Below, piece after piece: positions 2-18,252 of a DNA stretch of 64,000 nt. The translations under genes were made by a program, and so were the position numbers. Source of the stretch: Bacilli bacterium (GTDB taxonomy: Bacteria; Bacillota_I; Bacilli_A; RF39; UBA660); contig JAUNMV010000001.1 in NCBI GenBank assembly GCA_030531695.1, positions 9,137 through 73,136 on the forward strand, read 5' to 3'. Position 1 is the first letter of the stretch. Every line of letters begins with the position of its first letter. Below the pieces are notes generated by a model. That model saw nothing but the letters and a program-made list of their open reading frames with translations, made no database searches and had not been told where the DNA came from.

Positions 2-760
2 ACAGTTACAGTTTTAGGTGTTGTTGCCGCAATAATAGTACTATACGTAGCATATATTATGCGTGTAAATGCAGCAGTATCTCCTATCTCTGTTCCTTAT
101 GCTACAGCTCAAATTTCCCCAGGGGAACAAATTACTCAAAGTGTAGTAGGTACACGAGATGTTCCACCAGCAATGTTAAAGGGAAAAGTAATTAAAAATC
201 AATATGATGTAATAAATAAATATGCGAGTGCAAATTCAGTTATTCCAAAAGGAAGTTTATTCTATGAATCTGCAGTTGTAGAAAAAGAACAATTACCAGA
301 AAATGTTATTTTAGATTATCCATCAGGATATGTTCTATATAATATGGCAGTAACTCCAGAAGTTACTTATGGTAATTCAATGTATCCTGGAAATTATATT
401 GATATTTATCTAAAGGCAGTTAATAAAGTAACAGATGATAGATTTTTAACATCAGATGCTGATAAAATGATGCTTGGAAAATTACTAGAAAACATTAAAA
501 TTCTAGCAGTACAAGATTCAGCTGGTAAAGCAGTATTTGCAGATTTAGATGAACAAAAAACACCTGCAATGTTAATATTCGCAGTACCAGAAGAGTATTA
601 TATCTTATTAAAAAAAGCAGAATTTTTAAGTGTCTATGAATCAACATTAATTCCAGTTCCAACTAATGAATCTTTAAAAGATAAGCCTGGAGATTTAAAA
701 TTATCAAGTACTGATTTAAAAGACTGGATTAATAAGGTAACTATTTGGACAGATAAATAA
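2..760 (+). CDS. CpaB/RcpC-like Flp-pilus assembly protein (SAF domain), 5' end off-window
   Basis: The frame is open back to base 2 (TVTVLGVVAAIIVLYVAYI looks like the membrane anchor). Roughly half of the residues are identical to ORF 909..1718. It has a SAF-like N-domain (VPYA..Q...G.QIT) and a GNYIDIYLK...ILAV...AMLIFAVPEEYYILL C-domain as in CpaB. Confidence 0.6.
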   Translation, partial: TVTVLGVVAAIIVLYVAYIMRVNAAVSPISVPYATAQISPGEQITQSVVGTRDVPPAMLKGKVIKNQYDVINKYASANSVIPKGSLFYESAVVEKEQLPENVILDYPSGYVLYNMAVTPEVTYGNSMYPGNYIDIYLKAVNKVTDDRFLTSDADKMMLGKLLENIKILAVQDSAGKAVFADLDEQKTPAMLIFAVPEEYYILLKKAEFLSVYESTLIPVPTNESLKDKPGDLKLSSTDLKDWINKVTIWTDK

Positions 761-790
761 AAAGAAAACTAAAAAAGTTTTCTTTTTTTT
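760..790 (+). terminator. Rho-independent terminator after the first cpaB-like gene
   Basis: Hairpin agaaaac/gttttct followed by a T8 run. Confidence 0.6.
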
Positions 791-848
791 ACCCTTTAAA
801 CATATAAATATGATAAAATTAAAAGTATAGTAAGATATCGTGCAGTAA

Positions 849-876
849 TTGACTTATTTTGAATTTATGCTAAAAT
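849..876 (+). promoter_or_regulatory. Sigma-A-type promoter candidate for the operon starting at 909
   Basis: TTGACT, 16-nt spacer, TAAAAT. Confidence 0.4.
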
Positions 877-908
877 TAGAATAGGGAAAATAGAAGGGAA
901 GAATAACA

Positions 909-1718
909 ATGGGGAATTTAATACTAAGTCTAAAAAAAGTTATTATAAATAAAAATTCAGTAACTATATTAGGTTTAATTTTATGTATATTTATAATTTT
1001 TTACAGCTATAACAAACGTGTTTCAGATTCTATTAATCCAATAACAGTTCCTTATGCTAAAACTCAAATCTTATCAGGTACTCAAATTACAAATAAAATG
1101 GTAGGAATTACACAAGTACCTCCATCAATGTTAGAAGGAGATGTAATTACTAATGTATCTGATGTAGTAGATAAATACACTAATGCAGATACTATGATAC
1201 CTGAAGGTAGTTTATTCTATAAAAGAGCAGTTGTAGCAAGAGAAGATCTTCCTGCAAATATAATATTAGATTATCCTACAGGATATGTTTTATATAACAT
1301 GAAGGTTAATACAGAATCTACTTATGGTAATCAAGTATATCCTGGAAATTATATAGATATTTATTTAAAAGTAGAAACTCAATCATTAACAGGAGATATT
1401 ACTAATAAACGTGCAGATGATAAAGTAATGGTTGGTAAGATGTTTTCTCATGTAAAAGTAATATCAGTATTAGATAAAGATGGTAATGCAATATTTAAAA
1501 AAGATAATAATGCTGGACCACCAGCAATGATAATATTTGCTATTCCAGAAGAGTATTACATATTACTAACAAAAGCTTTTTACTTAAGAAGCTATTATTC
1601 AACATTAATACCAGTACCAACAAATGAATCTTTAAAAGAATCTCCTGGAGAATTAGAAATGTCCAGTGAATATTTAAAAGAGTGGATTAATGCTGTTACT
1701 ATATGGACAGATAATTAA
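909..1718 (+). CDS. CpaB/RcpC-like Flp-pilus assembly protein (SAF domain), paralog 2
   Basis: N-terminal TM anchor, SAF-like domain and GNYIDIYLKV...VKVISVLD...AMIIFAIPEEYYILL. Paralogous to 2..760. Confidence 0.6.
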   Translation: MGNLILSLKKVIINKNSVTILGLILCIFIIFYSYNKRVSDSINPITVPYAKTQILSGTQITNKMVGITQVPPSMLEGDVITNVSDVVDKYTNADTMIPEGSLFYKRAVVAREDLPANIILDYPTGYVLYNMKVNTESTYGNQVYPGNYIDIYLKVETQSLTGDITNKRADDKVMVGKMFSHVKVISVLDKDGNAIFKKDNNAGPPAMIIFAIPEEYYILLTKAFYLRSYYSTLIPVPTNESLKESPGELEMSSEYLKEWINAVTIWTDN

Positions 1719-1732
1719 AAGGGGTGATATAA

Positions 1733-3034
1733 ATGAACGGAAGTATTTTTGATAAATTAGATTTTGGTCCATTTAGACCATTACTAGATGATGACGATAT
1801 TACAGATATTTCTTACGATAATGGTGGCCAAATTTGGATTCGTTCGCTAACTCAAGGTTCAATGAGAGTTGAAGTTGAAGGAGCTACACCAGAATTCGTA
1901 GAAAAATTAGCATTCCAATGTTCTAACGTTATGGGTACAACATTCAACAATGCCAAACCATTCCTAGATGCTGAGAGTGCTGAATTACGTATGAACTTCG
2001 TTCACCAATCTATAGCAACAAACGGTATTGCTTTAGTTATACGTAAAACACCAGCAAAAATAAGATTAGAGAAGAATAAATTAATAGATGAAAAATATTT
2101 TACAGAAAATATTCACGACTTTTTAATGAAGTGTGTAGAAGGTCACTGTAATATTATGGTAGCTGGAGAAACTGGTTCAGGTAAAACTGAGTTCGTTAAA
2201 TATCTAGCATCTCATACTAAATCAAATGAAAAAATAATAACAATAGAAGATACACTAGAATTACACTTAGATAAAATTTTCCCACAAAGAGATATAGTTG
2301 CAATGAAAACTAATAACGTTGCAAGTTACTCAGATGTATTAGTTACATGTATGCGTCAGAATCCAAAATGGATTCTATTATCAGAAGTTCGTTCTGCAGA
2401 AGCTGTTTCTGCTGTACGTAACTCTATTTCATCAGGACACAATATTTTATCAACAATCCATGCTGATAAAGCATCAGCAATCCCATATCGTCTTTATTCA
2501 TTAATGGAGACAGATCTAGATGTAAATCAATTCTTAAATACAATTTATAGATATATTCAAATCGGTATTCATATTAAAGCTTATTATAGTAAAGAATATG
2601 GTAATTTCCACCGTGAAATAGATGAAGTTACAGAATTCTATGTAGATGATAATAATGAACCAGTATCTCATACAATCTATAGAAAGAGTATGGGTAGAGA
2701 AGAAATGGTTAAACCTAGTAAACATTTAATAGAATATATTGAAAACCAAAACATTGAAATTGATAGTATTATTAAAGACTTACCAGAAGAGATGGCAGTA
2801 AAACAAGATGAATATAACTTAGAATCTGTAATGGAAGAAAGTAAAAAAGAAAATAGTATTGGTCAAGTACAACAACAAGTACAAGCTGCAGTAGCAAGTA
2901 CTCCACAACCACCAGTTCAACAACCTGTTCAACAAGTACAAGCTCCAACTCAACCTGCACAACAGATACAAGTACAACAAACATCTCAACAAATACCTAT
3001 GACACCTCCTATGCCACAGGCGTTAGGAAATTAG
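1733..3034 (+). CDS. CpaF/TadA-VirB11 superfamily secretion ATPase with a Q/P-rich C-terminal tail
   Basis: Walker A GETGSGKTE, Asp box IEDTLEL, Walker B-like WILLSEVR and His box GHNILSTIHA. The N-domain motif DITDISYDNGGQIWI is typical of the family. The last ~60 aa are VQQPVQQ-type low complexity. Confidence 0.8.
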   Translation: MNGSIFDKLDFGPFRPLLDDDDITDISYDNGGQIWIRSLTQGSMRVEVEGATPEFVEKLAFQCSNVMGTTFNNAKPFLDAESAELRMNFVHQSIATNGIALVIRKTPAKIRLEKNKLIDEKYFTENIHDFLMKCVEGHCNIMVAGETGSGKTEFVKYLASHTKSNEKIITIEDTLELHLDKIFPQRDIVAMKTNNVASYSDVLVTCMRQNPKWILLSEVRSAEAVSAVRNSISSGHNILSTIHADKASAIPYRLYSLMETDLDVNQFLNTIYRYIQIGIHIKAYYSKEYGNFHREIDEVTEFYVDDNNEPVSHTIYRKSMGREEMVKPSKHLIEYIENQNIEIDSIIKDLPEEMAVKQDEYNLESVMEESKKENSIGQVQQQVQAAVASTPQPPVQQPVQQVQAPTQPAQQIQVQQTSQQIPMTPPMPQALGN

Positions 3035-3044
3035 GAGGCAAGTT

Positions 3045-3947
3045 ATGTATATAGAAGAGTTATTTATAATTATTATATTTGCAGTAGCTATATACTTATA
3101 TAGAAACTATAAAGGAGAAAATGTAGGTAAATATGTTACTGGTCAAGTACAAGAAATGTATGATAAATTTGCTCCATATTCTTTCAAAGTAGTTCGTGAA
3201 AAGACTAAGGAATTAGGACAAGAATATACAGTTAGACAATATACAATACAAGTTATATTGATAGCTGGATTTGCAGGAATTGTAACATACTTATATTTTT
3301 ACAGTTTAATTATAAGTATAGTTTATATGGTAGTAGCAGTATTATTTATACCATACTTAGCTTATCTAAGATGTAATAAAGTTTATTCAGAATTTATATT
3401 TGAACAAATACAAGTATATACATCTAATACTATTATGGAGTTTGCTACAACACAATCATTTGTAAAAGCCCTAGAAGGTGTAAGATCATCTGGAGTGCTA
3501 GAAGATCCAGTATTAAGTGACGTAAATCATATGATTGATTTAGCATATAAGAATGGTACAATTGATGAATCACTTACGTATATGTCTCAATTATATCCAT
3601 TCTATATTGTAAAAAATATGCACCAATTATTCTTACAAATTACAAAAGAAGGTGCGAGAAATACAGCTGATTCATTAGATAACATGCAATCAGATATCGA
3701 TATGCTTATTGAAAGTGTATATCGAGATAGAATTGAAAGAGCTAACTTCCACAAATCATTCTTACAGTTTGGTGTAATGTTGTACCTGATGGTTATGTTA
3801 GTACAATACTTATTAGGTAGAGAAACATACCTAATGCTATTAAATAGGGCATTTATTCAAGTCTTACTTCACGGAGTATTAATAATAAATACATATTTCC
3901 TAATTAAAGGGGAAAAATATTATAACGAGAATGTAGGTGCTGAATAA
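3045..3947 (+). CDS. TadB-like inner-membrane platform protein (T2SS-F-like topology)
   Basis: Topology is TM, cytoplasmic helical domain, then C-terminal TM pair. It follows the ATPase by 10 nt, the usual TadA-TadB-TadC order. The call rests on topology and context only. Confidence 0.45.
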   Translation: MYIEELFIIIIFAVAIYLYRNYKGENVGKYVTGQVQEMYDKFAPYSFKVVREKTKELGQEYTVRQYTIQVILIAGFAGIVTYLYFYSLIISIVYMVVAVLFIPYLAYLRCNKVYSEFIFEQIQVYTSNTIMEFATTQSFVKALEGVRSSGVLEDPVLSDVNHMIDLAYKNGTIDESLTYMSQLYPFYIVKNMHQLFLQITKEGARNTADSLDNMQSDIDMLIESVYRDRIERANFHKSFLQFGVMLYLMVMLVQYLLGRETYLMLLNRAFIQVLLHGVLIINTYFLIKGEKYYNENVGAE

Positions 3948-4756
3948 TGGAGATATTAATAGTAGGAGCAATACTTATGTTTATCTTAATTTATAATAAT
4001 ACAATAGATAAAAATAAGTTTTTTGCAGATAATGAAAAATATTTAGAGGTAATCAGAGAAGAAGATTACACATTCTTAGTTTATGCTAAATATGGAGAAG
4101 ATGCTGATGCAGACCAGTTATACATGAAAAGAGTAACATTTGCAATTGTAATGTTCTTCATAGTATTAGCTTTTACAATGAGTGGAGGTAACTCATTAGA
4201 CTTTGTAAATTCCCAATTCTTCTTAAATTTAGTTTTATCTGCTGTAGTAGCATTTATATCATTTAAGATGAATTACTTCCAATTAAAAAATTATTATAAA
4301 GCGCACTTACATGAAATAGATATAATGTTACCATACTATTTAAAGAGTTTGGAAATTTTAATTCAACATTATACTGTACCTGTAGCTTTAGGTAAATCTA
4401 TAGAAGATGCACCTGAAATATTTAAACCTGGACTTCGTAAAATGATAGATAGAATCAATGCTGGAGATTCATCAGTAGATCCATATATGGAATTTGCTAA
4501 TACTTATCCAGTTAGAGATTCAATGCGTATGATGCGTTTATTATATCGTTTAGGTATAGGTTCACAAGAAAAGAAACAAGATAGACTTATGATGTTTTCA
4601 AGAACTGTATCATCATTACAAAATAAAGCAAGAGAAACAAAATATAAAGAAAGACTTAACACAATGGAACAACAAACAATGATTATGTTAGTTGTAACAG
4701 GTGTAGGAGTAATGCTTATTATTTTGATTTCAATGATGATGATGTTTAGTATCTAA
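3947..4756 (+). CDS. TadC-like inner-membrane platform protein
   Basis: TAATG stop/start overlap with the previous gene. Same TM, helical domain, TM layout. Confidence 0.45.
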   Translation: MEILIVGAILMFILIYNNTIDKNKFFADNEKYLEVIREEDYTFLVYAKYGEDADADQLYMKRVTFAIVMFFIVLAFTMSGGNSLDFVNSQFFLNLVLSAVVAFISFKMNYFQLKNYYKAHLHEIDIMLPYYLKSLEILIQHYTVPVALGKSIEDAPEIFKPGLRKMIDRINAGDSSVDPYMEFANTYPVRDSMRMMRLLYRLGIGSQEKKQDRLMMFSRTVSSLQNKARETKYKERLNTMEQQTMIMLVVTGVGVMLIILISMMMMFSI

Positions 4757-4762
4757 AAATTA

Positions 4763-4791
4763 TTGTAAAAAAAAAACAACGATGCTATAAT
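4763..4791 (+). promoter_or_regulatory. Strong promoter candidate upstream of the small pilin-like ORF; contains an A10 tract
   Basis: TTGTAA, 17-nt spacer, TGcTATAAT (extended -10). A10 homopolymer at 4767..4776 spans the -35/spacer. Confidence 0.5.
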
Positions 4792-4823
4792 TAATTTAGA
4801 ATAAAGGAAGGATGTGAAAGCTA

Positions 4824-4991
4824 ATGAAAGCAGCAACTGGAGAATTACAATTAACAGTTATTACAATGATCGCAATCGCAGCAATTATTGGTTTTTTCTG
4901 GATTTTATGGCCACAAATTCAAGAATCAATTAAAACTCAATGGACAAATATTAATAGTGATTACACTGGTTATATCGTGGTTAGAAAATAG
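4824..4991 (+). CDS. Small Flp/pilin-like protein (55 aa, not in the ORF track)
   Basis: MKAATGELQLTVITMIAIAAIIGFFWILWPQIQESIKTQWTNINSDYTGYIVVRK. It has a short polar leader ending in Gly, then a ~22-residue hydrophobic helix. AAAGGAAGG lies ~12 nt upstream. It sits between TadC-like and TadE-position genes. Confidence 0.5.
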   Translation: MKAATGELQLTVITMIAIAAIIGFFWILWPQIQESIKTQWTNINSDYTGYIVVRK

Positions 4992-5001
4992 GTGATAACT
5001 T

Positions 5002-5448
5002 ATGCGTGATGCAATGGGAGGCGTAGTTAACCTAGTAATTATAGTAGTATTCATGGTAATAGTATCTGGATATCTTGCATTTAATGTAAGTTATACTAGA
5101 GCATTTAGAGTTAAAAATAAAATTATTTCGACATATGAACAATATAATGGTAATTGTGAGAGTAATTCATCACCATGTATGACTCAAATTATGAAATACA
5201 TGCAAGAAATTGGATATGATATGAACCAACATATTGATTTACCAGGCTATAATTGTCGTAAAGGATTCTGTTCTAAAAGGGTAGATGCTGAAACAGATAT
5301 TAATCATAGAACAGTAGATGACAGAAATAGATGCTACTATAAAATCGTTACTCAAATAACAATTGATTTACCAATTATAAATAGAGTAATGCAAGGAATG
5401 GATACATTTAAAGTTAAAGGAGATACAAAATCCTTTATAGTAGAATAA
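5002..5448 (+). CDS. Membrane-anchored Cys-rich protein, possible minor pilin/TadE-position protein
   Basis: N-terminus MRDAMGG followed by a hydrophobic helix (VVNLVIIVVFMVIVSGYLAF). Six Cys in the exported part. Function not recognisable. Confidence 0.3.
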   Translation: MRDAMGGVVNLVIIVVFMVIVSGYLAFNVSYTRAFRVKNKIISTYEQYNGNCESNSSPCMTQIMKYMQEIGYDMNQHIDLPGYNCRKGFCSKRVDAETDINHRTVDDRNRCYYKIVTQITIDLPIINRVMQGMDTFKVKGDTKSFIVE

Positions 5449-5506
5449 TAGTTGGAGGAAATGTTGAATAGTCTAGTCAGATTAATAAAGACAGGAGGCT
5501 GATATA

Positions 5507-6571
5507 GTGAACGTTCTTGTTTTGAACGAACAACAAAATCAGTTACAATCTATAGAAGTAGATATAATTAAAAGTGTAACTGGTAAATTCGAGGCAAGTG
5601 AAATCGTTAACATGTTTAAAGACTTCTTCTTTAATAAAATGATACTGGATGTAACAGCTCTTAATCATTATGAAGATCCAACTACATACAAAAATATAGT
5701 TGATGGAATAAATCCAGATAAAGTCATTTTTTACTTACCAGAAGGAAGTGAACTTTGTACATCTGGATTTTTGTCTCGTCTAATAAATTATGGAATTTAT
5801 AATTTTACTACTAATAATGATGGAGTAAAATATCTAATAAAAAAATCAAATACACTTAAAGATGTAGAAAGCATAATTAAAATGGCTCAAGGAGCAAAAC
5901 AACAAACAAGTAATCCTGCTCCTGTTGTACAACAGCCAGTTCAACAACCTGTACAACAAAGAGAACCAGAAAGAAAAAACACATTTTTACCTGCAGACAT
6001 AGGAAATCAACCAATGGTAATAGGATTTCAAAATGTAACAGAACATGCTGGATCATCATCATTAGTTTATATGTTAAAGAAAGAACTTAATGAGGTGTAT
6101 AAAAATCAAGTATATGCAGTAGAAATAGATAAAAATGATTTTCTATCATATGGCGATAAGACTATGGTTTCCACAACAAAAGAACAAATTAGAACGTTAT
6201 TAACTAAATTAGAAAGTTGCAAAGTAATATTAGTAGATTTAAATAATGATACTGAAAATGATTTTTGCACAAAAGTAATATATCTGATGGAGCCAAGCAC
6301 AATAAAATTAAATACATTAATGAGAAAGAATAGAAATGCCGTAGAAGTTCTAAAAGGTAAAGATGTAATATTAAATCAAAGTTTATTAACACAAAAAGAA
6401 ATATCTGAATTCGAATATGAATCAGGTATTAAAGTACTATATAATATGCCGCCTTTAAATGATAGAAAAAGAAATGAGATTATAATTGATTTCTTAAGAA
6501 AAATAAGATTAATAGATGATAATTCTCATAATGGTGGAACAGGTAAAATTTTTGGCTTGTTTAGAAAGTAA
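5507..6571 (+). CDS. TadZ/CpaE-like protein: receiver-like N-domain, Q/P linker, ParA/MinD-fold domain with degenerate Walker A
   Basis: The C-domain has the MinD-like strand pattern (MVIGFQNV..., VILVDLNND, IYLMEPS, ILNQS). The P-loop position reads TEHAGSSS instead of KGGxGKT. GTG start with an AGGAGG-like SD. Confidence 0.4.
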   Translation: MNVLVLNEQQNQLQSIEVDIIKSVTGKFEASEIVNMFKDFFFNKMILDVTALNHYEDPTTYKNIVDGINPDKVIFYLPEGSELCTSGFLSRLINYGIYNFTTNNDGVKYLIKKSNTLKDVESIIKMAQGAKQQTSNPAPVVQQPVQQPVQQREPERKNTFLPADIGNQPMVIGFQNVTEHAGSSSLVYMLKKELNEVYKNQVYAVEIDKNDFLSYGDKTMVSTTKEQIRTLLTKLESCKVILVDLNNDTENDFCTKVIYLMEPSTIKLNTLMRKNRNAVEVLKGKDVILNQSLLTQKEISEFEYESGIKVLYNMPPLNDRKRNEIIIDFLRKIRLIDDNSHNGGTGKIFGLFRK

Positions 6572-6575
6572 GCAA

Positions 6576-6604
6576 TTGACAAATAAGGGTATATAAGATA
6601 TTAT
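6576..6604 (+). promoter_or_regulatory. Promoter candidate for the VirB2-like pilin gene
   Basis: TTGACA, 17-nt spacer, TATTAT. Confidence 0.5.
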
Positions 6605-6628
6605 AGTGTTAACGAAGGAGAGATGTAT

Positions 6629-6964
6629 ATGTCAAATTTAGTACAAATCGGAGTTGATTATTGCGGTGGATTAGGTCCAATCGTTAGAATTATAAAAAAA
6701 GGATTTATGCCACTAGTACAAATCGCTATTCCAATTATTTTAATCGTTTATGGAGTAATCGATTTAGGAAAAGCAGTAATTGCAAGTGATGAAAAAGAAA
6801 TTAAGGCAGCTCAAAGTAGATTAATCAAAAGATGTATCTATGCAGCAGCAGTATTCTTAGTAGTATTTTTCGTTACAATCGTTATGAATTTAGTAGCAGC
6901 TGCAAAAGATGATACTAATTCTATCGATACTACAAGCTGGCAAAAATGCTGGAATAATATTTAG
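6629..6964 (+). CDS. VirB2/TrbC-like T4SS pilin-like protein
   Basis: ~110 aa with two hydrophobic helices flanking a short charged loop (IAIPIILIVYGVIDLGKAVIASDEKEIKAAQSRLIKRCIYAAAVFLVVFFVTIVMNLV). Start chosen at the ATG 6 nt after GAAGGAGAG. It has its own promoter and terminator. Confidence 0.55.
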   Translation: MSNLVQIGVDYCGGLGPIVRIIKKGFMPLVQIAIPIILIVYGVIDLGKAVIASDEKEIKAAQSRLIKRCIYAAAVFLVVFFVTIVMNLVAAAKDDTNSIDTTSWQKCWNNI

Positions 6965-6982
6965 TAGAATTAACGAAAGAAT

Positions 6983-7012
6983 AAATAGCAAACAAATTGC
7001 TATTTTTTTTTT
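6983..7012 (+). terminator. Rho-independent terminator after the pilin-like gene
   Basis: atagcaa/ttgctat hairpin followed by a T10 run. Confidence 0.6.
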
Positions 7013-7059
7013 CGTTTGATATAATTATTATGTTATAATGTATTTGGAGTGGACTTTTT

Positions 7060-8097
7060 ATGAAAAATAACAAATTTATTAAAATATCATTATTAATAAT
7101 CTTAGTGACATTCATGTCACTTTTTCCTATAGATACTATGGCTAAAGAGCTAATTTGTAACTATAATTATGACGGAAATAATCTACAATACGTATTAAAA
7201 AATAATAAATTAACTAGTCCTATAAAAGATGGACAAAAAATTAATAATAAAAGCTGGTATAATAGTTCAAGTTTTGATGAAATATTTATCTCATCAACAA
7301 GATCAACTAAAGGCGATTTATGTCCTACAATAGTAGTTGAAGATAACGAACTATTTAATACAGTATTTGTAAATTATAGAGATGAAAAAGATTGTAATGG
7401 AAAATGTACACAACTTACTTCAACTAGTAATAATTTAAAAGTAGAAGAAACAAAAATTATTACAGCTGTTGGAGTATACAATAGTGATAGCTATTTTATT
7501 CCATCATTTAGAAAAATAAGTGATAATACAATAGAATGGTCACTTGATAATAGTAAGTACAGTAGCATTAATGATGCAATAAAATTAGATAAGAAAAGTA
7601 TAGTAAAAATAGATGAAAAAATAATTAAAAATTTATTTACTAATAATGATAATTCAGCTAAAATATACAGATGTGTTTTTACATCAGGTAAAAAAGTAAT
7701 TTATAACTTACAAGAAAATGAAACAAGTTGTAAAAATGACTTAAGTAAAAATGATAAACAAGGCTATGTAGCTAATTCTTATGACGGTAACAAAGGTGCA
7801 GGAAACTGTAAGAGTACAGTTTTAGGTGATCCTAAAGATGAAAACTCAGTAGCATGGTTACTACAACAGTTATTAAATTACATGCGAATTTTAGGACCTA
7901 TGATAGTTTTAATAATGAGTGCAGTTGATTTTGCCAAAGCAATCGTTATGGGCGATGATGAAACAATGCAAAAGTGTTATAAAAAATTAATTAAGAGACT
8001 AATCTTAGCAATGTTATTATTCTTCGTTCCAACACTTGTTACTATTTTATTAAATGTATTTGGATTTGTTGGAGATCCAATATGTGTTTTAGATTAG
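7060..8097 (+). CDS. Secreted Cys-rich protein with a C-terminal VirB2-like hairpin
   Basis: Signal peptide (MKNNKFIKISLLIILVTFMSLFPIDTMA), a ~230-aa Cys-containing domain, and a C-terminus ILGPMIVLIMSAVDFAKAIVMGDDETMQKCYKKLIKRLILAMLLFFVPTLVTILLNVF that aligns with the 6629..6964 product. Confidence 0.5.
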   Translation: MKNNKFIKISLLIILVTFMSLFPIDTMAKELICNYNYDGNNLQYVLKNNKLTSPIKDGQKINNKSWYNSSSFDEIFISSTRSTKGDLCPTIVVEDNELFNTVFVNYRDEKDCNGKCTQLTSTSNNLKVEETKIITAVGVYNSDSYFIPSFRKISDNTIEWSLDNSKYSSINDAIKLDKKSIVKIDEKIIKNLFTNNDNSAKIYRCVFTSGKKVIYNLQENETSCKNDLSKNDKQGYVANSYDGNKGAGNCKSTVLGDPKDENSVAWLLQQLLNYMRILGPMIVLIMSAVDFAKAIVMGDDETMQKCYKKLIKRLILAMLLFFVPTLVTILLNVFGFVGDPICVLD

Positions 8098-8121
8098 CAA
8101 AATCATAAAGAGGTGAATTGA

Positions 8122-10071
8122 ATGAACAACAAGCAAGGCCTAATAAATGATGCGATAAGAACAGTTTTTGGTGCAATTGACTGGATATTATTTTCATTCC
8201 TAGATTGGATGTACAGAGTGTTCTTTGATGTTTCGACAGTAGAGTTTTTAACAGGTGAAACTATTAGAAATTTCTTTTCAAGAATACAACTTATCTTAGG
8301 TGTATTCATGGTATTTAAAATTAGTATATCAATATTACAAGCTATTGTTGAACCGGACAAAATTACGGATAAAAGCAATGGCTTTTCGGCATATATTAAA
8401 AGAATTATTATTTGTTTAATTATGCTTACATTATTAATACCTAGAAATATTCCAAATGCTAAAAATGAATATCAAGTACAAATTAATAATAATGGTTTAC
8501 TATTTGGTACTTTATATTCACTACAAGGTAGAATTTTAAGAAACAATACTTTAGGTAAATTAGTTCTTGGAAAATCAACAGGAAATGTAACACTATCTGA
8601 AGGTAGTGATAGTAATACTAATTATGGAAATGAACAAGCTAAATCCATGAAAGAAATGGGTAGAGATTTTACAGTTACGATTTTAAAAGGATTTGTTCAA
8701 CAAAGTAATAAGTGTTCAAACTTTGATTCTACAGACGCTGGTAAAGCATATGCTAGTGATTCAGTAGATCAAACACAATTACTAATGGATAATATTAATG
8801 GTCAATGTAAAGACCACTATTATGCATATATGTACTATCCAATTATTGGTGGAGTAGTTGCAGCAGTGTTTGCAGTAATATTAATTGGATTCTCAATTGA
8901 TATAGCAGTTCGTGCACTTAAACTAGCAATACTTAGATTATTAGCTCCTATACCAATAATTAGTTATCTTGATCCAAATCAAGAGAAAAAAGGTGCATTT
9001 GCAAACTGGGTAAAAATACTAACAGCAACATACTTAGATTTATTTATCCGTTTAGCAATAATCTATTTTGTAATATTCTTAATTAATGATATTAAAGATA
9101 ATGGAATTGTAATGGGTACAGAAAATGATACATTTATGAATGTAATAGTATTCATAGTTATCTGCTTCGGTTTATTCTTCTTTGCTAAACAAGCCCCTAA
9201 ATTCATAAAAGATGTATTAGGTGTTCAAAATGCAATGCAAAACATTGGTCTTGCTTCTATCTTAGGTGGTACAGCAATGGCTATGGGTGGCGGAGGTCTT
9301 ACAGGTTTTGCTTATGGAGCAATGAATGGAGCACGTTCACAAGTTGATGCTTACAATCAAGGTAAAGCAGCACCTGTAGGTAGTGCATGGTCATCTAATA
9401 GAGATTTAATGGCTAAAATAAGAACAGGTGACAAAGATGCTCAAGGTGGAATCTTTGGTAGAGCACAAGACTACTTGAACTATCAAACTCGTGAGAGAAA
9501 TGCTAGACGTTTAGGAATCGGTGCACAAGATGTTGCTGATGCTAAGTATATAGCTGATGCATACGAGAAGATGATGTTACAAGCTCAAGATGAGATGGAA
9601 GATGCTAAGATGAAATATCAATACGATCCAACAAATCAACAATATGCAGATGCTTATCATAAAGCAGCAGCAAAATATGGATCATATGCAGAAGCTTATA
9701 AGAAAGCTAATAAGAGATACGAAGCTATGGACAAAACAAGAGGTCAATTGGGAATTGCACCTACTGCAGAGTCTGTCAGAGAAATCAAACCATTACATGG
9801 AAACGGCGAACCAGACAAGAGTGGAAATTATCGTTCACCTCTTAAGACTGAAGGAGAGTTTGTATTTGATCCTAATACAATGCCAGATTCAATTAAACCA
9901 TTTGAAAAGGATAATGAGATTAAATCTAGTATCACTGGTCATAGAAGAGATACTAATGGATTTGATGGAACTATTGATGATAGTTTTGGATCTGGATCTA
10001 TGGGAACAGGTGCTGCTGGTAGCTCACATCAAGGTGGAGGACCTGGCGGTAGACCTGGAGGACATCATTAA
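8122..10071 (+). CDS. VirB6/TrbL-like polytopic T4SS channel protein with a Gly-rich tail
   Basis: Multiple TM segments, a large loop, and a cytoplasmic C-terminal region ending GGGPGGRPGGHH. It lies between the pilin-like and VirB3/VirB4 genes. Confidence 0.55.
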   Translation: MNNKQGLINDAIRTVFGAIDWILFSFLDWMYRVFFDVSTVEFLTGETIRNFFSRIQLILGVFMVFKISISILQAIVEPDKITDKSNGFSAYIKRIIICLIMLTLLIPRNIPNAKNEYQVQINNNGLLFGTLYSLQGRILRNNTLGKLVLGKSTGNVTLSEGSDSNTNYGNEQAKSMKEMGRDFTVTILKGFVQQSNKCSNFDSTDAGKAYASDSVDQTQLLMDNINGQCKDHYYAYMYYPIIGGVVAAVFAVILIGFSIDIAVRALKLAILRLLAPIPIISYLDPNQEKKGAFANWVKILTATYLDLFIRLAIIYFVIFLINDIKDNGIVMGTENDTFMNVIVFIVICFGLFFFAKQAPKFIKDVLGVQNAMQNIGLASILGGTAMAMGGGGLTGFAYGAMNGARSQVDAYNQGKAAPVGSAWSSNRDLMAKIRTGDKDAQGGIFGRAQDYLNYQTRERNARRLGIGAQDVADAKYIADAYEKMMLQAQDEMEDAKMKYQYDPTNQQYADAYHKAAAKYGSYAEAYKKANKRYEAMDKTRGQLGIAPTAESVREIKPLHGNGEPDKSGNYRSPLKTEGEFVFDPNTMPDSIKPFEKDNEIKSSITGHRRDTNGFDGTIDDSFGSGSMGTGAAGSSHQGGGPGGRPGGHH

Positions 10072-10093
10072 TAAAAAAGGGAGTGTGATATAG

Positions 10094-10405
10094 ATGAATT
10101 ATTTAATTCCAGCTAACACTAAGAACGGTAAATTGATTCTTGGAATCTTTAGACCGTTCGACCTAATACTATTTAGTGTTGGTTTACTAGTTACAATAAT
10201 TTTATTAGCAATTATGCCTCAGGAAAATACAGTAGTAACAATACTATGTTTAACTCCTGCAGTAGTATGCGCATTCTTAGTAATGCCAATACCTAATTAT
10301 CATAATATGTTAACAATTATTATTGAATTATATGAATTCATAACAACGAGACAAACTTATCGTTGGAGAGGATGGTGTTATAAAGTTGGCAAAAAAAGTA
10401 AGTAG
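10094..10405 (+). CDS. VirB3/PrgI-like small two-TM T4SS protein
   Basis: 103 aa with two TM helices, immediately upstream of and overlapping VirB4. Confidence 0.5.
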   Translation: MNYLIPANTKNGKLILGIFRPFDLILFSVGLLVTIILLAIMPQENTVVTILCLTPAVVCAFLVMPIPNYHNMLTIIIELYEFITTRQTYRWRGWCYKVGKKSK

Positions 10406-10934
10406 TGGATTTACAGAAGATTGGTTACCACTAAAAGGAATACAAAATGGAATGATCATTACAACAAGTAATGAAAAAGTAACAGGAGTAAAAATTACTC
10501 CAAGAAATATATTTATTCTTGATCCAAATATGCAAGATAATATATTAATTAGTTTGAAAAACTTTTATAATATGCTAGATTTTGAATTTTGGTTAGTAGT
10601 TGCAGATAGACCAGTAGATATATCAGTGTATATGTCTCAACTACAATTACTTTATAATGAAAGTCCAACTCCTGCTATTAGAAAGTTAATTATGCAAGAT
10701 ATAAATAAAGGACAAAGCTTTATAAATAACAATATTGTTGATACAGAATATTTTATCTTGTTTAAACATAAAGATCCTGATCTATTACAAAAGAGAGTTA
10801 GATTAATGATAAATGGGTTAGCACAAAGTGGTTTAAATGCTGCTCAAGTAACTAATAATGATTTACGTGTAATCATGGAGAACTTCTTAAATGGAGGAAC
10901 TTCAACTGAGTTTGGGACGGTGATGTCTGAATGA
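10386..10934 (+). CDS. VirB4-family N-terminal domain encoded as a separate ORF
   Basis: TTG start after GGAGAGGATGGTG. The layout EDWLPLKGIQNGMI...VTGVKITPRNIFIL is as in the N-termini of Gram-positive VirB4/TraE/PrgJ proteins. It ends in an ATGA overlap with the ATPase ORF. Confidence 0.55.
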   Translation: MAKKVSSGFTEDWLPLKGIQNGMIITTSNEKVTGVKITPRNIFILDPNMQDNILISLKNFYNMLDFEFWLVVADRPVDISVYMSQLQLLYNESPTPAIRKLIMQDINKGQSFINNNIVDTEYFILFKHKDPDLLQKRVRLMINGLAQSGLNAAQVTNNDLRVIMENFLNGGTSTEFGTVMSE

Positions 10935-12721
10935 GTACAGGAATAAGAAGTCAATTAGCCCCTAAGGGATTACATTTTAATCCTAGTGATTTCTTTATTA
11001 GTGATAAATATGCAACTATCTTAACTGTTGTATCTTATCCTAAATATATCTCACCAGGATATTTATCATCATTAACTAACATGTCAGGAATTAAAGTTGT
11101 TGTTAAGCACATACCTGTACCTTTTGCAGAAATGTCAAAAATGCTTAATAAACAAGTTGCTGATTTAAAAGAAAAATATCGTAATGAAAGAGATCAAACA
11201 TTACGTGAAAGAATTAGACAAGATGCTGAAAGTTTGGAATACTTCACATCAATGTTAGCTGGATCACAAGCAAGAATCTTCGATTTTCAAATGCACATTA
11301 TGATTACAGCTGATACAAAAGAAGAATTAGAATTAAAGAAAGTAAATGTTAAAAACTATCTAGATGCTATGGAACTTCGTGCTATATCTCTACGTTTTGA
11401 ACAAGAAAAGGTACTAAAATCTATTTTACCTATTTTCCCACCTCAAGATATAGAGCAAAGAATTGGTACACCAATTCCATCAGTAACAATAGCAGCTATG
11501 TATCCATTTATATTTGATAGTATCAAAGATCCTGGATTATCTACACTATTAGGAGTAGATTTCTCAGGTGGAGTTATCTTATTTAATCAATTCTTATATA
11601 AGATAAGAAAAGAGAATAATAGAAATAATGCTAATATGATTATTTTAGGTACATCTGGTTCTGGTAAATCTACAGCAGCTAAATTAATGCTTAGAACTCA
11701 TATCAGAAATGGTTGTCAAATAGTAATAATTGATCCAGAAGATGAATTCAGAGAAATAACATATGCCTTCGGTGGAGATACAGTTGATATTGGTAAAGGT
11801 GGACAGTTTGGTTTAATCAATCCATTAGAAATTGTAATTGATGCCGATGAAGAAGAAATAGCTCAAGGTTTAGGACATTCTATTATTACAAGAACACTTC
11901 AATTCTTAAGAGGATTTATGAAATACTATGATCCATCTATTGAAGAAGATGTTCTAAACATGTTCTCAGAAGTTGTTCAAGATACATATAGAAGATTTGG
12001 AATAGATTTTAACACAGACTTCACTAGATATACTTCAGCTGACTATCCAACATTCAGTGATGTATATGCAACTATTAGAGGTAGATTAACATCTATTACA
12101 GAACAGACTCAAGAAAGAGATATACTAGAAAGACTTGAATTAAAAGTAAGACCAATCACTAGAGAATTAAAATTCTATTTTGATGGACATACTACATTAC
12201 GTAAAGATAGCGATTTCATGGTATTTAATATAAAAGAATTAATGAATAGTGATTCTACAGTAAGAAATGCATTATTCTTCAATGTCTTAAAATATGCGTG
12301 GGGTCTATGTCTAGATTCAAGTGTTGATACAGTACTTATGGTAGATGAAGCTCACGTATTATTAGGAGATAATAATGTACAAGGAGCAGATTTCCTAGCT
12401 CAAGTACAAAGACGTGCTAGAAAGTATAACACAGGTACTATAATAATTACTCAACAACCGAGTGATTTCTCAAACCCACAAGTAATAACTCAAGGAAAAG
12501 CAATCTTTGATAATGCTTCATATTACTTAATAATGGGTCTTAGAAAACAAGCAACTGAAGATTTAGCATTATTAATAGATTTAAATGAAAGTGAAAAAGA
12601 AAGTATAAAACGTTATTCTCAAGGAGAAGCATTATTCGTCTGTGGTAATAGACGTATGAGAATAAATGTAGCCGTAACTAAAGAAGAATTAGATTCTTTC
12701 GGAGCTGGCGGCGGGTTCTAA
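10931..12721 (+). CDS. VirB4/TraE-family T4SS ATPase (C-terminal ATPase part)
   Basis: Walker A GTSGSGKST, Walker B LMVDEAHVLL, and a conserved ARKYNTGTIIITQQPSDF segment. Confidence 0.85.
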   Translation: MSTGIRSQLAPKGLHFNPSDFFISDKYATILTVVSYPKYISPGYLSSLTNMSGIKVVVKHIPVPFAEMSKMLNKQVADLKEKYRNERDQTLRERIRQDAESLEYFTSMLAGSQARIFDFQMHIMITADTKEELELKKVNVKNYLDAMELRAISLRFEQEKVLKSILPIFPPQDIEQRIGTPIPSVTIAAMYPFIFDSIKDPGLSTLLGVDFSGGVILFNQFLYKIRKENNRNNANMIILGTSGSGKSTAAKLMLRTHIRNGCQIVIIDPEDEFREITYAFGGDTVDIGKGGQFGLINPLEIVIDADEEEIAQGLGHSIITRTLQFLRGFMKYYDPSIEEDVLNMFSEVVQDTYRRFGIDFNTDFTRYTSADYPTFSDVYATIRGRLTSITEQTQERDILERLELKVRPITRELKFYFDGHTTLRKDSDFMVFNIKELMNSDSTVRNALFFNVLKYAWGLCLDSSVDTVLMVDEAHVLLGDNNVQGADFLAQVQRRARKYNTGTIIITQQPSDFSNPQVITQGKAIFDNASYYLIMGLRKQATEDLALLIDLNESEKESIKRYSQGEALFVCGNRRMRINVAVTKEELDSFGAGGGF

Positions 12722-12745
12722 AATAGAAAGAAGTAGGTGATTTAT

Positions 12746-15121
12746 ATGTCAGATTATAAGAGTACTAGAAGTCCAGAATCAGAAAATCCAGGCGAAACAC
12801 AATCATTTGCTTCTGCTATGCATGAACAAAAAGAACAAGAAAAAGAATCTTCCAAAAAAACTGCCAAAGTAGCTGCTAAAGGAGCAGCTATGTACTTCGG
12901 AGGACCAGAAGCAGGAGCAGCAGTCGATATGGCTGCAAATACTAAAGCAGGAGAAAAAATCATCAATAAAGGTGGAGAAGCTTTAAATAAAGTTCCTGGA
13001 GTAGGAAAGGCATCAAAAAAATTAGATGATGCCGGAGTACTCGATAAAGCAGACCAAGCACTTAGTATGGCTGGTTCTGCAGGTGGTGGAGCCGGTGCTG
13101 CAAATGGAGCAGCAAATGGTGCAGCAGCAAGTGGAGGAGCAGCTAGTGCTCAAACTGCAGCCAATACAACAGAAGCAGCAAAAGCATCTAGTGGAGCAGC
13201 TAATCAAGGAGGAAGCTCTTCTAGTGGGGGAGATTCCTCTTTTTTCGATAATATAAAAGATAAAAAGAAAAAAGACAGTAACAAAGATGAAAATGGAGAA
13301 GAGAAAGAAAGAGATTCTGTACTAGAAGGTAAAGTAAAAATACCAATGGCAGTTAAAATGGCTGCTTTAAGTGCAGTTCCATTCATCTTATTAATTGTAT
13401 TAATATTAATAATTATTACTGCTATTGGTGGAGCAATCAATGACTTTACAGATGCCGTAAGTATCAGTAAATACTTTGATTTACCAACAGGTGATAATAG
13501 TGCAGAAAATATTTCTGATGATGCAAAAAAATTCATCGAAAGAGTAAAAGAAGTAAAAGATGAATATGAAAAAAATGAAAAAACAGTAGATCCATTACTA
13601 GTAATGGCAGTATATCACGTAGCTAACTACCATAATAAAGATATAGACTATAACTACATGACTAAAGCTAGAATAAGAGCTGTAGCAGCTGCAATGTTTA
13701 CTGAAAACTCTACATCATATTCAGAAGAAGCATTTAGAAAAGAATTAACAAAAACAATATTTAAAAATTATTTTCCTAATAAAGATGAAGCAACAAGAGA
13801 AAAATATACTAATGAAGTTTTTGAATACATAAAAGATTATTATGAATTAATAGGATATACTCCTATGACATTATGTGCTCCTATGGGTACATGTTCATAT
13901 AACATTAAAGGATTTTATATCTATGGAAGAGGTAATATTACAAAGAACTTAAATATTACTAACTTAAAAATTAGATTAATGGAATCAGGTTCTGGAAATG
14001 GACATAACTATGGAGGTACTTTTGGAAAAGCAATGGCTAATGAAGAATTAGTTGATTTCGAAAAGTATATCTTAGGAGTAGCATATCAAGAAATAGGTCC
14101 AGGAGCTTCGGAAGAAGCATTTAAAGCTCAAATGGTAGCAGCTAGAAGTTACATTTTAGCAAGGCCTACTGTAATGGGTGGATGGAGAACTCTACAACAA
14201 GAAAATGGTCAATGGATTTTACAAACAGCCAATTCTACACAAGATCAAGTATATTGTGATCCAGATAAAGGATGCTCTTCAGCAGATGGACAATGGTCAA
14301 TGGTTCATAGCGGACTTACTTCAGGTAGAGTTCTAAAACAACCAATGCCATCAAATTCAAAATTAAGATCTCTAGCAAATGAAACAGCTGGAGAAGTAGT
14401 AGTTAATTCTCAAGGATATATAGTATATACTCCATATACTAGTACCCAACAAAATAAAATGGAAGAATTAGCTAAAAAAGGACTTAACTATAAACAAATA
14501 TTACTAGAAATATATAATGGTAATGGTGCAAAGAATTTAGGTGTAAGTGGTACTGAAAAGATGACATGTAATAATACTGAAGTTACATGTAATAATGGAG
14601 TATCTGGAGATATAGCATCATGGAGACAAATAAGAGGTCCATGGATTAATATACCTTTAGGTAATAGTCATAATACCATAAGAAGTGCTGGATGCTTAGT
14701 AACATCAATAGCAATTCAAATGGCTCGAAGTGGAGTACCAATTAATACTACAGAAGAGTTTAATCCTGGAGTATTCGTCCAATTCTTAAATAGAAATGGA
14801 GGATTTACATCTGGTGGTTCACTAACAGATTATACCTTAGCAACAAAAATGGCTCCTAACTTTAAATATGTAGGTTCTACTTCAGTTACTGGATATTCAC
14901 AAGATCAAAAATATAATACTTTAGTAGACTTATTAAATAAAGGTTACTACGTAGTAGCAGAAGTTAAGTTAGGTAACAAATCAGGACAACACTGGGTAGC
15001 AGTAATAAGTGCATCTAATGGTCAAGTAACAATGGTAGACCCAGCAAGTGATAGTACAAGCATGTGGCAAAAATACCCATCTGCAGGTACAAGTAGATAT
15101 GTATATTATAAAGTAGGATAG
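12746..15121 (+). CDS. T4SS-associated cell-wall hydrolase (VirB1 analogue): SpoIID-like domain plus C-terminal Cys/His papain-like (C39/CHAP-like) domain
   Basis: Ala/Gly-rich N-terminus and one TM. AYQEIGPGASEEAFKAQMVAARSYILARP resembles SpoIID/LytB. The C-terminus has SAGCLVTSIAIQMA ... GQHWVAVI, a Cys...His pair. The ATG at 12746 follows AGGTGA. Confidence 0.65.
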   Translation: MSDYKSTRSPESENPGETQSFASAMHEQKEQEKESSKKTAKVAAKGAAMYFGGPEAGAAVDMAANTKAGEKIINKGGEALNKVPGVGKASKKLDDAGVLDKADQALSMAGSAGGGAGAANGAANGAAASGGAASAQTAANTTEAAKASSGAANQGGSSSSGGDSSFFDNIKDKKKKDSNKDENGEEKERDSVLEGKVKIPMAVKMAALSAVPFILLIVLILIIITAIGGAINDFTDAVSISKYFDLPTGDNSAENISDDAKKFIERVKEVKDEYEKNEKTVDPLLVMAVYHVANYHNKDIDYNYMTKARIRAVAAAMFTENSTSYSEEAFRKELTKTIFKNYFPNKDEATREKYTNEVFEYIKDYYELIGYTPMTLCAPMGTCSYNIKGFYIYGRGNITKNLNITNLKIRLMESGSGNGHNYGGTFGKAMANEELVDFEKYILGVAYQEIGPGASEEAFKAQMVAARSYILARPTVMGGWRTLQQENGQWILQTANSTQDQVYCDPDKGCSSADGQWSMVHSGLTSGRVLKQPMPSNSKLRSLANETAGEVVVNSQGYIVYTPYTSTQQNKMEELAKKGLNYKQILLEIYNGNGAKNLGVSGTEKMTCNNTEVTCNNGVSGDIASWRQIRGPWINIPLGNSHNTIRSAGCLVTSIAIQMARSGVPINTTEEFNPGVFVQFLNRNGGFTSGGSLTDYTLATKMAPNFKYVGSTSVTGYSQDQKYNTLVDLLNKGYYVVAEVKLGNKSGQHWVAVISASNGQVTMVDPASDSTSMWQKYPSAGTSRYVYYKVG

Positions 15122-15129
15122 GTGATAAT

Positions 15130-15897
15130 ATGAAAAGATATATAATATTAATCATAGTAATACTACTATTTGGTTTTTCACTATATTATTTCGTAGGTAA
15201 AGATAGTATTAAAGCCCAAAAAGTAAAAACAACTATCCTACTTAATAACGATACAGTATTCGAATATAATAATAGAAGTTGGATTAAAGTAAATGATAGT
15301 TATATAAATGATTATAACTGGAAAGAATTTGATGTATTTTTAGATTCAACTTATAAAGGAAAAAAACTAGTATGGCATGATGATCAATGGTATATATTTG
15401 ATAAAAATAAAAATGCCGTTAATTATAATGAAAGATTTATTGGAGTAAAAGCTAATTACGAAATAAATGTAAAAGACTTTGAAATAATATCTGATGAAGA
15501 TAATGGTTATGCCAATGCATTATTATCAGAATACCACTTACCAGCTACATCTGAATTAACATCAAATGATAAAGTGATAGTAGATATAGATAATGATGGT
15601 GAAAATGAAGAAATATATATAATAAGTAATACATTCCCAATGGATACTGAACCAGACACTATTTTTTCAAGTGTATTCATGATAAAAAACAATCAAAAAT
15701 ATCAAATATTTGAACAACATCATCAAGATGATGTTTATAGTGGATGTCTTCCATATATAAACTCAATACTAGACGTTGATAATGATGATAATTATGAGAT
15801 AGTATTAACATGTGCAAGATTTAGTGCACAAGAACCAATAAACATTTTATATAAATTCGATAAAACTAAGTTTACCAAGCTAATTTCAAATGAATAA
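15130..15897 (+). CDS. Membrane-anchored exported protein with two DxDNDG/FG-GAP-like motifs
   Basis: N-terminal TM. Motifs VDIDNDGENEEIYII and LDVDNDDNYEIVL. Function unknown. Confidence 0.3.
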   Translation: MKRYIILIIVILLFGFSLYYFVGKDSIKAQKVKTTILLNNDTVFEYNNRSWIKVNDSYINDYNWKEFDVFLDSTYKGKKLVWHDDQWYIFDKNKNAVNYNERFIGVKANYEINVKDFEIISDEDNGYANALLSEYHLPATSELTSNDKVIVDIDNDGENEEIYIISNTFPMDTEPDTIFSSVFMIKNNQKYQIFEQHHQDDVYSGCLPYINSILDVDNDDNYEIVLTCARFSAQEPINILYKFDKTKFTKLISNE

Positions 15898-15952
15898 GTA
15901 ATGACAGTTTATAAAACATAAGCTATAATAATGACAGAAAGGAAGTAGTAAA

Positions 15953-18238: not shown

Positions 18239-18252
18239 AAAGGAGAATACTT

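Follow-up and report, generated by a model that had tools for sequence, protein, structure and literature searches.

The pilins of classical type IV secretion systems (T4SSs), TrbC and VirB2, are cyclised head to tail, and Flp and Tad pilins possess a class III signal peptide and one helix. In modular type IV pilins (for example PilB of Streptococcus sanguinis) and in minor pilins, the polymerisation module of the major subunit is fused to an extra domain, which is displayed by the filament. Gram-positive T4SSs lack VirB2 pilins, with Patescibacteria as the sole exception, according to the consulted sections of a 2025 review (PMC12857230) and a 2025 genome survey (PMC12102498). The same sections treat the family PF18895 (T4SS_pilin) as VirB2-like, and its profile, along with that of TrbC, served to identify the VirB2-like pilins of Patescibacteria (PMC12102498). 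Here we describe two adjacent genes, A and B, which both encode a two-helix hairpin and stand at the junction of an upstream Tad-like module and downstream T4SS genes. They lie in a 64,000-nucleotide stretch (the window; positions 9,137 to 73,136 of the forward strand of JAUNMV010000001.1, assembly GCA_030531695.1) of a Bacilli bacterium assigned to order RF39 and family UBA660. The window is contig C16 of a metagenome-assembled genome that is 81% complete and 1.46 Mb in size.

We favour, with a probability of roughly one half, a reading in which one machine combines the Tad-like module with the T4SS, and A and B are its paralogous VirB2-like hairpin subunits, B being the one that displays a variable ectodomain. 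The T4SS itself is relaxase-less, chromosomal and of Gram-positive type, and is a core feature of an uncultured family of small-genome gut Bacilli. New in this analysis are the treatment of the ectodomain as a cassette, the synteny of split loci, the distribution figures and a conserved terminator-like hairpin after A.

A and B encode homologous hairpins

The two genes and the parts of B are as follows:
6629..6964, + strand: gene A, 111-amino-acid (aa) two-helix hairpin without a leader (start from the ribosome-binding site and homologues)
7060..8097, + strand: gene B, open reading frame (ORF) of 345 aa
7060..7143, + strand: Sec signal peptide of B, residues 1-28, ...PIDTMA/KE with cleavage after TMA (read from the sequence)
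7144..7806, + strand: variable, beta-rich, Cys-containing ectodomain of B, residues 29-249
7807..8097, + strand: hairpin module of B, residues 250-345 plus the stop codon (PF18895, hhalign, AlphaFold2)

The ORF of A opens at 6623, and both the AAGGAG ribosome-binding site at 6616-6621 and all homologues indicate the ATG at 6629, which we therefore take as the start. The protein runs from Cys12 (C14 in ORF numbering) through helix 1, a basic loop and helix 2 to a W..CW tail; its AlphaFold2 model (predicted local distance difference test, pLDDT, of 75) contains two helices, 18-53 and 57-93 in ORF numbering. The hairpin of B comprises C250, a helix at 264-297, a basic loop, a helix at 300-333 and C342. 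A first-pass annotation of the window had described these two ORFs and had credited B with a signal peptide and a Cys-containing extracellular domain, and both descriptions hold. The signal peptide is of type I Sec (AXA-like TMA/K), and eight Cys are distributed over the ectodomain and outer tails of B; across 30 B homologues, C33, C88, C250 and C342 never vary, and C112 and C116 reach a conservation of at least 90%.

Relatives were gathered for both proteins, 40 for B and about 1,000 for A. In BLASTP, A matched a gap-free 69-residue segment of B (271-339) at 29% identity (E 3e-10), and hhalign aligned the two family profiles over 88 columns with a probability of 98.5% (E 2.1e-15), with the Cys before helix 1 aligned as well. 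Because the family profiles align at this level, the likeness of the two proteins, which the earlier annotation had pointed out through their common motifs (DLGKAVI/DFAKAIV, RLIKR/KLIKR and VTIVMN/VTILLN), is real and goes beyond generic transmembrane-helix composition.

The charge distribution across 48 hairpins, with 5.6-6.0 Lys and Arg residues and a net charge of about +2.7 in the loop and tails that are negative or weakly charged/positive, makes it most likely that both A and B have their two ends outside and the basic loop in the cytoplasm, which would put the Cys pair on the same outer side. Among B-type hairpins these flanking Cys occur in 38/38 and 37/38, and among A-type hairpins in 10/10. 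The AlphaFold2 model of B, computed with the family alignment, has a mean pLDDT of 83, with a beta-rich region at 31-218 at about 90 and two 34-residue helices; beta-bridges pair residues 250-251 with 341-342, and C250 thus comes to lie beside C342. The conserved Cys on each outer tail probably form a disulfide clasp. The ectodomain of B has no Pfam match, and Foldseek of the B model against PDB and a viral library returned nothing at E≤0.001.

Evidence for membership in PF18895

PF18895 has a curated gathering cut-off of 26.6 bits. A scores 12.5 bits (E 0.16, profile positions 4-66 of 71) and B 19.8 bits (E 8.2e-4, positions 5-71 of 71). The profile was matched by 22/30 relatives of B at E≤0.01 (best 1.3e-7), by 23/23 relatives of A at E≤0.5 (best 3.8e-4) and by 44/145 distant hairpin representatives at E≤1e-3, and it was the sole recurrent family; a paralogue on contig C67 of the same genome exceeds the cut-off with 28.6-31.5 bits. 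Membership of the A/B hairpin family in PF18895 is therefore best expressed at the level of the family, where it is well supported. We call the hairpins VirB2-like because of the published interpretation of PF18895; searches for a direct link to classical VirB2 failed.

Type IV and Flp (Tad) pilins offer no such connection. Neither A nor B has a class III signal peptide with a single N-terminal helix, both proteins having two helices, and the Pfam Tad match of A has an E-value of 0.82.

A fixed position and an exchangeable ectodomain

Our comparison set comprised 82 related loci, in 77 of which a B-type gene follows A, nearly always within about 100 nt. The order Tad-like, A, B, VirB6, VirB3, VirB4N, VirB4C is conserved, and every B in the 77 loci begins with a comparable canonical signal peptide. 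The part between signal peptide and hairpin is variable: 42 B genes are without an ectodomain (122-200 aa, consisting of signal peptide, short linker and hairpin), 27 have the window-type domain and 9 have other long domains, with two such genes in tandem at one locus. Identities of the window proteins to their relatives are as follows:
VirB4 ATPase: 82-89%
VirB3-like protein: 55-72%
A: 50-71%
Hairpin of B: 46-63%
VirB6-like protein: 34-50%
Ectodomain of B: 28-46%, or replaced

The ectodomain, with the lowest identity or outright replacement, thus changes faster and is exchanged more readily than any other part of the locus, and its variation looks as expected for an exposed recognition surface.

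A search of 1.84 billion proteins with the hairpin profile (E≤1e-3) returned 10,174 representative proteins. In the best 150 of these, which are 110-566 aa long, the hairpin is always C-terminal; 59 of the 145 that were analysed exceed 300 aa, and only 17 have the first subdomain of the window protein. The arrangement, which the first-pass annotation had considered an unusual design for a monoderm, is not a one-off: about half of the best 145 representatives have long N-terminal domains, and the hairpin belongs to the core of an entire bacterial family. Most long ectodomains other than the window-type domain open with a 'C-x-Y/F' strand right after the signal peptide (B-type P0196-P0305), and relatives P0027 and P0028 have an extra N-terminal copy of a 'CxY...W...CP' module. 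Because of this common start and these extra copies, the ectodomains may be built from a fast-diverging repeatable unit.

Four genomes (G055, G100, G037 and G021) have their Tad-like and T4SS modules at separate places. There, a leaderless A-type hairpin directly follows the TadZ-like gene, and a B-type hairpin lies 3-5 kb upstream of virB4, in frames of 272 (G055), 442 (G100), 437 (G037) and 141 aa (G021); G037 has a second small hairpin beside the T4SS. Three loci (L096, L097 and L100) have the T4SS only, without any Tad gene in the surrounding 10 kb, and in these one to three leaderless A-type hairpins stand before virB6. Hairpins therefore accompany both modules, and A, the free pilin of the earlier annotation, is not assignable to the T4SS alone.

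Promoter-like and terminator-like sites

Three candidate expression signals lie around A and in the spacer before B:
6576..6604, + strand: promoter-like site of A, TTGACA-17-TATTAT, 11 of 12 (consensus match only)
6976..7014, + strand: terminator-like AT-rich hairpin and U-run between A and B (dG -10 kcal/mol, z -4.75)
6997..7025, + strand: extended -10 promoter-like site of B, TTGCTA-17-TG-n-TATAAT (consensus scan)

The -35 of the promoter-like site of B overlaps the 3' arm of the terminator-like hairpin, and a TGnTATAAT/TATACT-like box before B is conserved in the spacer alignment. Related loci also have the dyad AAATAGCAA-N4-TTGCTATTT and a T-run behind it 3' of gene A, and some of them show alternative stems. 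RNAalifold found no consensus structure for the A-B spacer; single-sequence folds and the conserved dyad favour a hairpin. Only 16/78 spacers after B passed the terminator test, a lenient one that 55% of shuffled spacers also passed. A scan tool placed a terminator at 6937-6952, which is inside the coding sequence of A and unconvincing. The promoter and terminator that had been attributed to the free gene A thus correspond to the promoter-like site above and to the conserved terminator-like hairpin at 6976-7014, not to the scan-tool site. Because of its own promoter-like site and the partial terminator on its 3' side, A is likely the more abundant subunit. The layout would fit expression of A above that of B and the downstream genes, like major and minor subunits.

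Comparison with described systems

In the sections consulted of PMC12102498 and PMC12857230, the T4SSs of Patescibacteria (Candidatus Southlakia epibionticum ML1 and Candidatus Nanosynbacter lyticus TM7x) also have several divergent paralogues near virB4/virB6, and they share with the present system a chromosomal, relaxase-less, MPF_FATA-like T4SS in a small-genome monoderm, along with a type IV-filament module. Their PF18895 pilins are likewise two-helix hairpins of about 70 residues that match the whole profile. Here, however, the host is a family of Bacilli and the window proteins score under the Pfam cut-off. The window pair also differs in having one leaderless, highly conserved paralogue and another with a large replaceable N-terminal ectodomain, and in the Cys pair that brackets the hairpin; term look-ups in PMC12102498 and PMC12857230 gave no mention of fused ectodomains or of a Cys pair for Patescibacteria pilins.

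Like B, for which the topology is predicted, the TrbC/VirB2 proteins (PF04956; RP4 TrbC, Ti-plasmid VirB2 and R388 TrwL) have a signal peptide, two hydrophobic helices with a basic loop between them, and both ends outside. The short B orthologues, in which the signal peptide is directly followed by the hairpin, have the prepilin architecture with the same predicted topology. The TrbC/VirB2 gene is also located just upstream of the virB3-virB4 block, although here virB6 intervenes between the hairpin genes and virB3, and the Cys clasp would join both ends as cyclisation does. The differences are that A is leaderless, that B carries a 220-aa ectodomain, that there is no outer membrane to cross and that neither the profile nor solved pilins are matched.

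The nearest plasmid relatives of the window VirB4 are those of pAW63-type plasmids of Bacillus thuringiensis, at 29% identity. One of these, pBMB67, has the order relaxase, VirD4, 126-aa protein, TrbL_4 VirB6-like protein, PrgI/VirB3-like protein, 227-aa VirB4 N-domain and VirB4 ATPase; a Tad-like module follows downstream. Its 126-aa protein (11667-12047 of the examined stretch), annotated as 'hypothetical' or 'conjugal transfer' protein, consists of a long signal peptide and a two-helix hairpin with a basic loop. A 59%-identical homologue, P0314, scores 24.2 bits with PF18895 and 13.6 bits with TrbC over the whole profile; hhalign gave a probability below 1% between the pBMB67 and window hairpin families. 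Unlike the window pair, the pBMB67 hairpin has no Cys pair and no ectodomain, is present in a single copy and belongs to a conjugative plasmid with a relaxase. Judged by position and predicted architecture it is an analogue of the window hairpins, with a weak PF18895-TrbC bridge. Because P0314 weakly matches both families, conjugative plasmids of the Bacillus cereus group may also encode an unrecognised VirB2-like protein.

Modular type IV pilins follow the same design principle, but they belong to another filament superfamily, whose pilins have a class III signal peptide, a prepilin peptidase and a single N-terminal helix, and their extra domain is C-terminal; a further difference is that the filament is here a putative one. 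In integrative and conjugative elements (ICEs) of Mycoplasma, CDS13/CDS15 (NF045849, 'Mbov_0395 family pilin-like conjugal transfer protein') is, as in the window, a small protein with two transmembrane helices encoded next to the VirB6-like and VirB4 genes, and the window VirB6-like and VirB4 genes match the neighbouring ICE families MMCAP2_0566 and Mbov_0397. Unlike the ICE hairpins, the window family is matched by NF045849 only weakly or off the hairpin genes: only 8/23 A relatives gave matches, with E 0.028 or worse, and a six-frame search of the genome returned scattered membrane genes at ≤20.9 bits, against a cut-off of 40 bits for this profile, none of them a hairpin gene.

Distribution and paralogues

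The A profile matches 192/201 genomes sampled from the order and 95/99 genera, with genome sizes of 0.6-1.6 Mb, and the VirB4 ATPase is present in 131/141 genus representatives as single-copy orthologues of 63-90% identity. Within the class Bacilli, the hairpin occurs in 34/34 genomes of the window's family and in single genomes of two other families, and was not found in the other 26 Bacilli families sampled. Among 72,556 plasmids, tblastn returned no match to A or to the VirB6-like protein. Given these figures and the lack of a plasmid match, the Tad-like and T4SS block (window 2-19524) looks like a vertically inherited core machine of the lineage, not a mobile element. The genomes of the relatives come from animal and human guts and carry the labels uncultured 'Bacilli', 'Mollicutes', 'Tenericutes' or Candidatus Faecimonas.

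Genomes have between 1 and 14 copies of the hairpin, some of them on 330-555-aa frames distant from the T4SS. G017, G007 and others contain tandem arrays of such frames far from virB4, which suggests an expanded family of hairpin-anchored surface proteins. In the genome of the window, a 276-aa protein (contig C67, 934-1764, - strand of the examined stretch) combines an N-terminal leaderless hairpin with a C-terminal NlpC/P60 peptidoglycan hydrolase; its gene adjoins MltG-like and methyltransferase genes outside the T4SS locus. This fusion needs an outside C-terminus, which fits the ends-out topology. A fourth hairpin paralogue (contig C11, 1435-1848, + strand of the examined stretch) is leaderless, 137 aa long and Cys-bracketed, with an acidic tail, and is flanked by a phosphodiester-glycosidase-like gene and a gene for a large secreted protein.

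Genes around the pair

The last genes of the Tad-like module before A encode a TadC-like protein, a 55-aa Flp-like ORF, a TadE-like ORF and a TadZ-like ORF. Directly after B come:
8122..10071, + strand: VirB6-like membrane protein (TrbL_4; pLS20_p028 and MMCAP2_0566 families)
10094..12721, + strand: VirB3-like gene, VirB4 N-domain gene and VirB4 ATPase gene, three overlapping genes

VirB4 is thus encoded in two pieces, an N-domain gene of 182 aa and an ATPase gene of 596 aa, the latter in the Mbov_0397 family (354 bits). The two genes (window 10386-12721) overlap by ATGA, and the split is kept in all relatives examined; pBMB67 has the same split, with genes of 227 and 630 aa (13263-15842 of the examined stretch). 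An alternative genetic code was considered as its cause and rejected, because the three ORFs are in different frames with overlaps of ATGA or 20 nt and because the split is also conserved. The ATPase gene is followed by a SpoIID-type hydrolase and then a VirD4-like gene, directly 3' of which a 423-aa ORF (18253-19524) matches DUF6273 at 24.3 bits, just over the cut-off. No relaxase or integrase was seen among the genes of the T4SS block and its surroundings, and none of the scanned cluster ORFs was recognised as VirB8-like.

Beyond the T4SS block lie housekeeping genes, namely those for rhodanese, RmuC, tRNA synthetases, GatA/GatB and trigger factor. A few kb 3' of the block, past the rhodanese and RmuC genes, two secreted proteins are encoded in tandem (21063-24594): one at 21063-23096, in which a Listeria-Bacteroides repeat accompanies an ALK/LTK glycine-rich domain (116 bits), and its partner at 23125-24594.

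Interpretation

In the reading that we favour, A would be the conserved subunit, expressed from its own promoter, and B a Sec-exported subunit with a conserved hairpin. Between its signal peptide and its hairpin, B would carry a replaceable cassette, which many species lack and which measures about 220 aa here. The B hairpin could dock into the same assembly as A, on or beside the VirB6 platform, to form a short wall-spanning VirB2-like stalk or a membrane collar, and B would thereby expose its ectodomain on the cell surface, where it could make contact with a target. Co-polymerisation of B with A and a role of B as a tip or adhesin, both raised in the first-pass annotation, make a reasonable but hypothetical model. 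A more elaborate proposal, which we put forward tentatively, has A form a VirB2-like filament or stalk and B-type proteins act as modular minor pilins with exchangeable ectodomains at its tip or side; the dispersed arrays of B-like genes, which reach 14 per genome, would then encode a stock of alternative tips that sets the partner cell or surface, the Cys pair would replace cyclisation, and the Tad-like module would possibly take part.

Several results weigh against the VirB2-like subunit reading. A and B both fall under the PF18895 cut-off, and A has no signal peptide, which classical VirB2 prepilins do have. TrbC/VirB2 PF04956 matched neither hairpin gene in a six-frame search of the genome at E≤10, and sequence searches of the PDB with the A profile and with a combined hairpin profile found no pilin, returning nothing or G-protein-coupled receptor and transporter noise. 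Foldseek of the A and B models against PDB gave nothing at E≤0.001 and no specific pilin fold; what it returned for the hairpins at E>0.1 (HtrII, ATP synthase c and designed hairpins) indicates that a two-helix fold is too simple to discriminate. In the four split-module genomes the leaderless A-type gene remains with the Tad-like module and not with virB6, and hairpin-anchored proteins are also encoded far from any T4SS gene, so the hairpin may be a mere anchor. The VirB2-like character that had been claimed for both proteins consequently stands via PF18895 at the family level, and drew no backing from PF04956 (no match), NF045849 (noise) or solved pilins (nothing specific).

These points invite other explanations. 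The hairpins could be non-polymerising channel or scaffold subunits of the T4SS, like VirB3, TcpE or ConC-type proteins with two transmembrane helices, with the ectodomain of B as a wall-spanning VirB8- or VirB5-like piece. The conservation of A (50-71%) is near that of the VirB3-like protein (55-72%), solved pilins gave no similarity, the lack of a recognised VirB8-like gene among the scanned cluster ORFs leaves a structural role unfilled, and the review, in its consulted sections, calls the Mycoplasma ICE CDS13/CDS15 hairpins beside the VirB6-like CDS16 VirB3-like and not pilin-like (PMC12857230). We nevertheless consider this doubtful: a separate VirB3-like gene already stands before virB4, a scaffold is unlikely to be absent in 42 orthologues and swapped for unrelated domains in 9, and arrays of up to 14 per genome suit variable surface subunits better than fixed parts of a channel.

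It is rather improbable that the two proteins serve different machines, with A in the Tad-like pilus (e.g. as a platform or anchor), only B in the T4SS, and the paralogues not co-assembling. The pairing of the A-type gene with the TadZ-like gene and of the B-type gene with virB4 in G055, G100, G037 and G021 speaks for such a division, as do the promoter-like site of A and the terminator-like hairpin that separates it from B; yet the T4SS-only loci L096, L097 and L100 still have leaderless A-type hairpins upstream of virB6, G037 retains a second small hairpin beside its T4SS, and the family of A is named for, and found with, T4SSs, while Flp/Tad pilins differ in kind. Least probable to us is that the hairpin is a lineage-specific membrane anchor for surface proteins, next to the T4SS only incidentally. 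Its fusion to an NlpC/P60 hydrolase and its free occurrence beside unrelated genes in the same genome would be explained in this way, as would the many dispersed copies on 330-555-aa frames in other genomes. Incidental adjacency is, however, hard to reconcile with an A-B pair that is fixed upstream of virB6 in 77/82 loci and in more distant genomes, and with A being the most conserved member though it carries no cargo; the PF18895 link is independent of gene context, and a signal-peptide and hairpin protein, whose homologue P0314 reaches 24.2 bits with PF18895, occupies the same position in pBMB67.

The PF18895-related, pilin-like family described from Patescibacteria is thus also a core, multi-copy part of a chromosomal T4SS across a family of gut Bacilli. 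There it also forms the C-terminal end of secreted proteins whose ectodomains change fast, a form of which term look-ups in PMC12857230 and PMC12102498 gave no mention. If the A and B proteins do assemble into a surface structure, a T4SS pilus would exist in a second monoderm lineage, these Bacilli. Such a structure would also be, to our knowledge, the first case of modular, cargo-bearing VirB2-like subunits. Whether transfer requires such hairpins could be addressed in a culturable host, through the weakly PF18895-like hairpin that pAW63-type plasmids encode at the same position. For the organisms themselves, such a surface structure, if formed, would hint at how uncultured gut bacteria with reduced genomes contact other cells.

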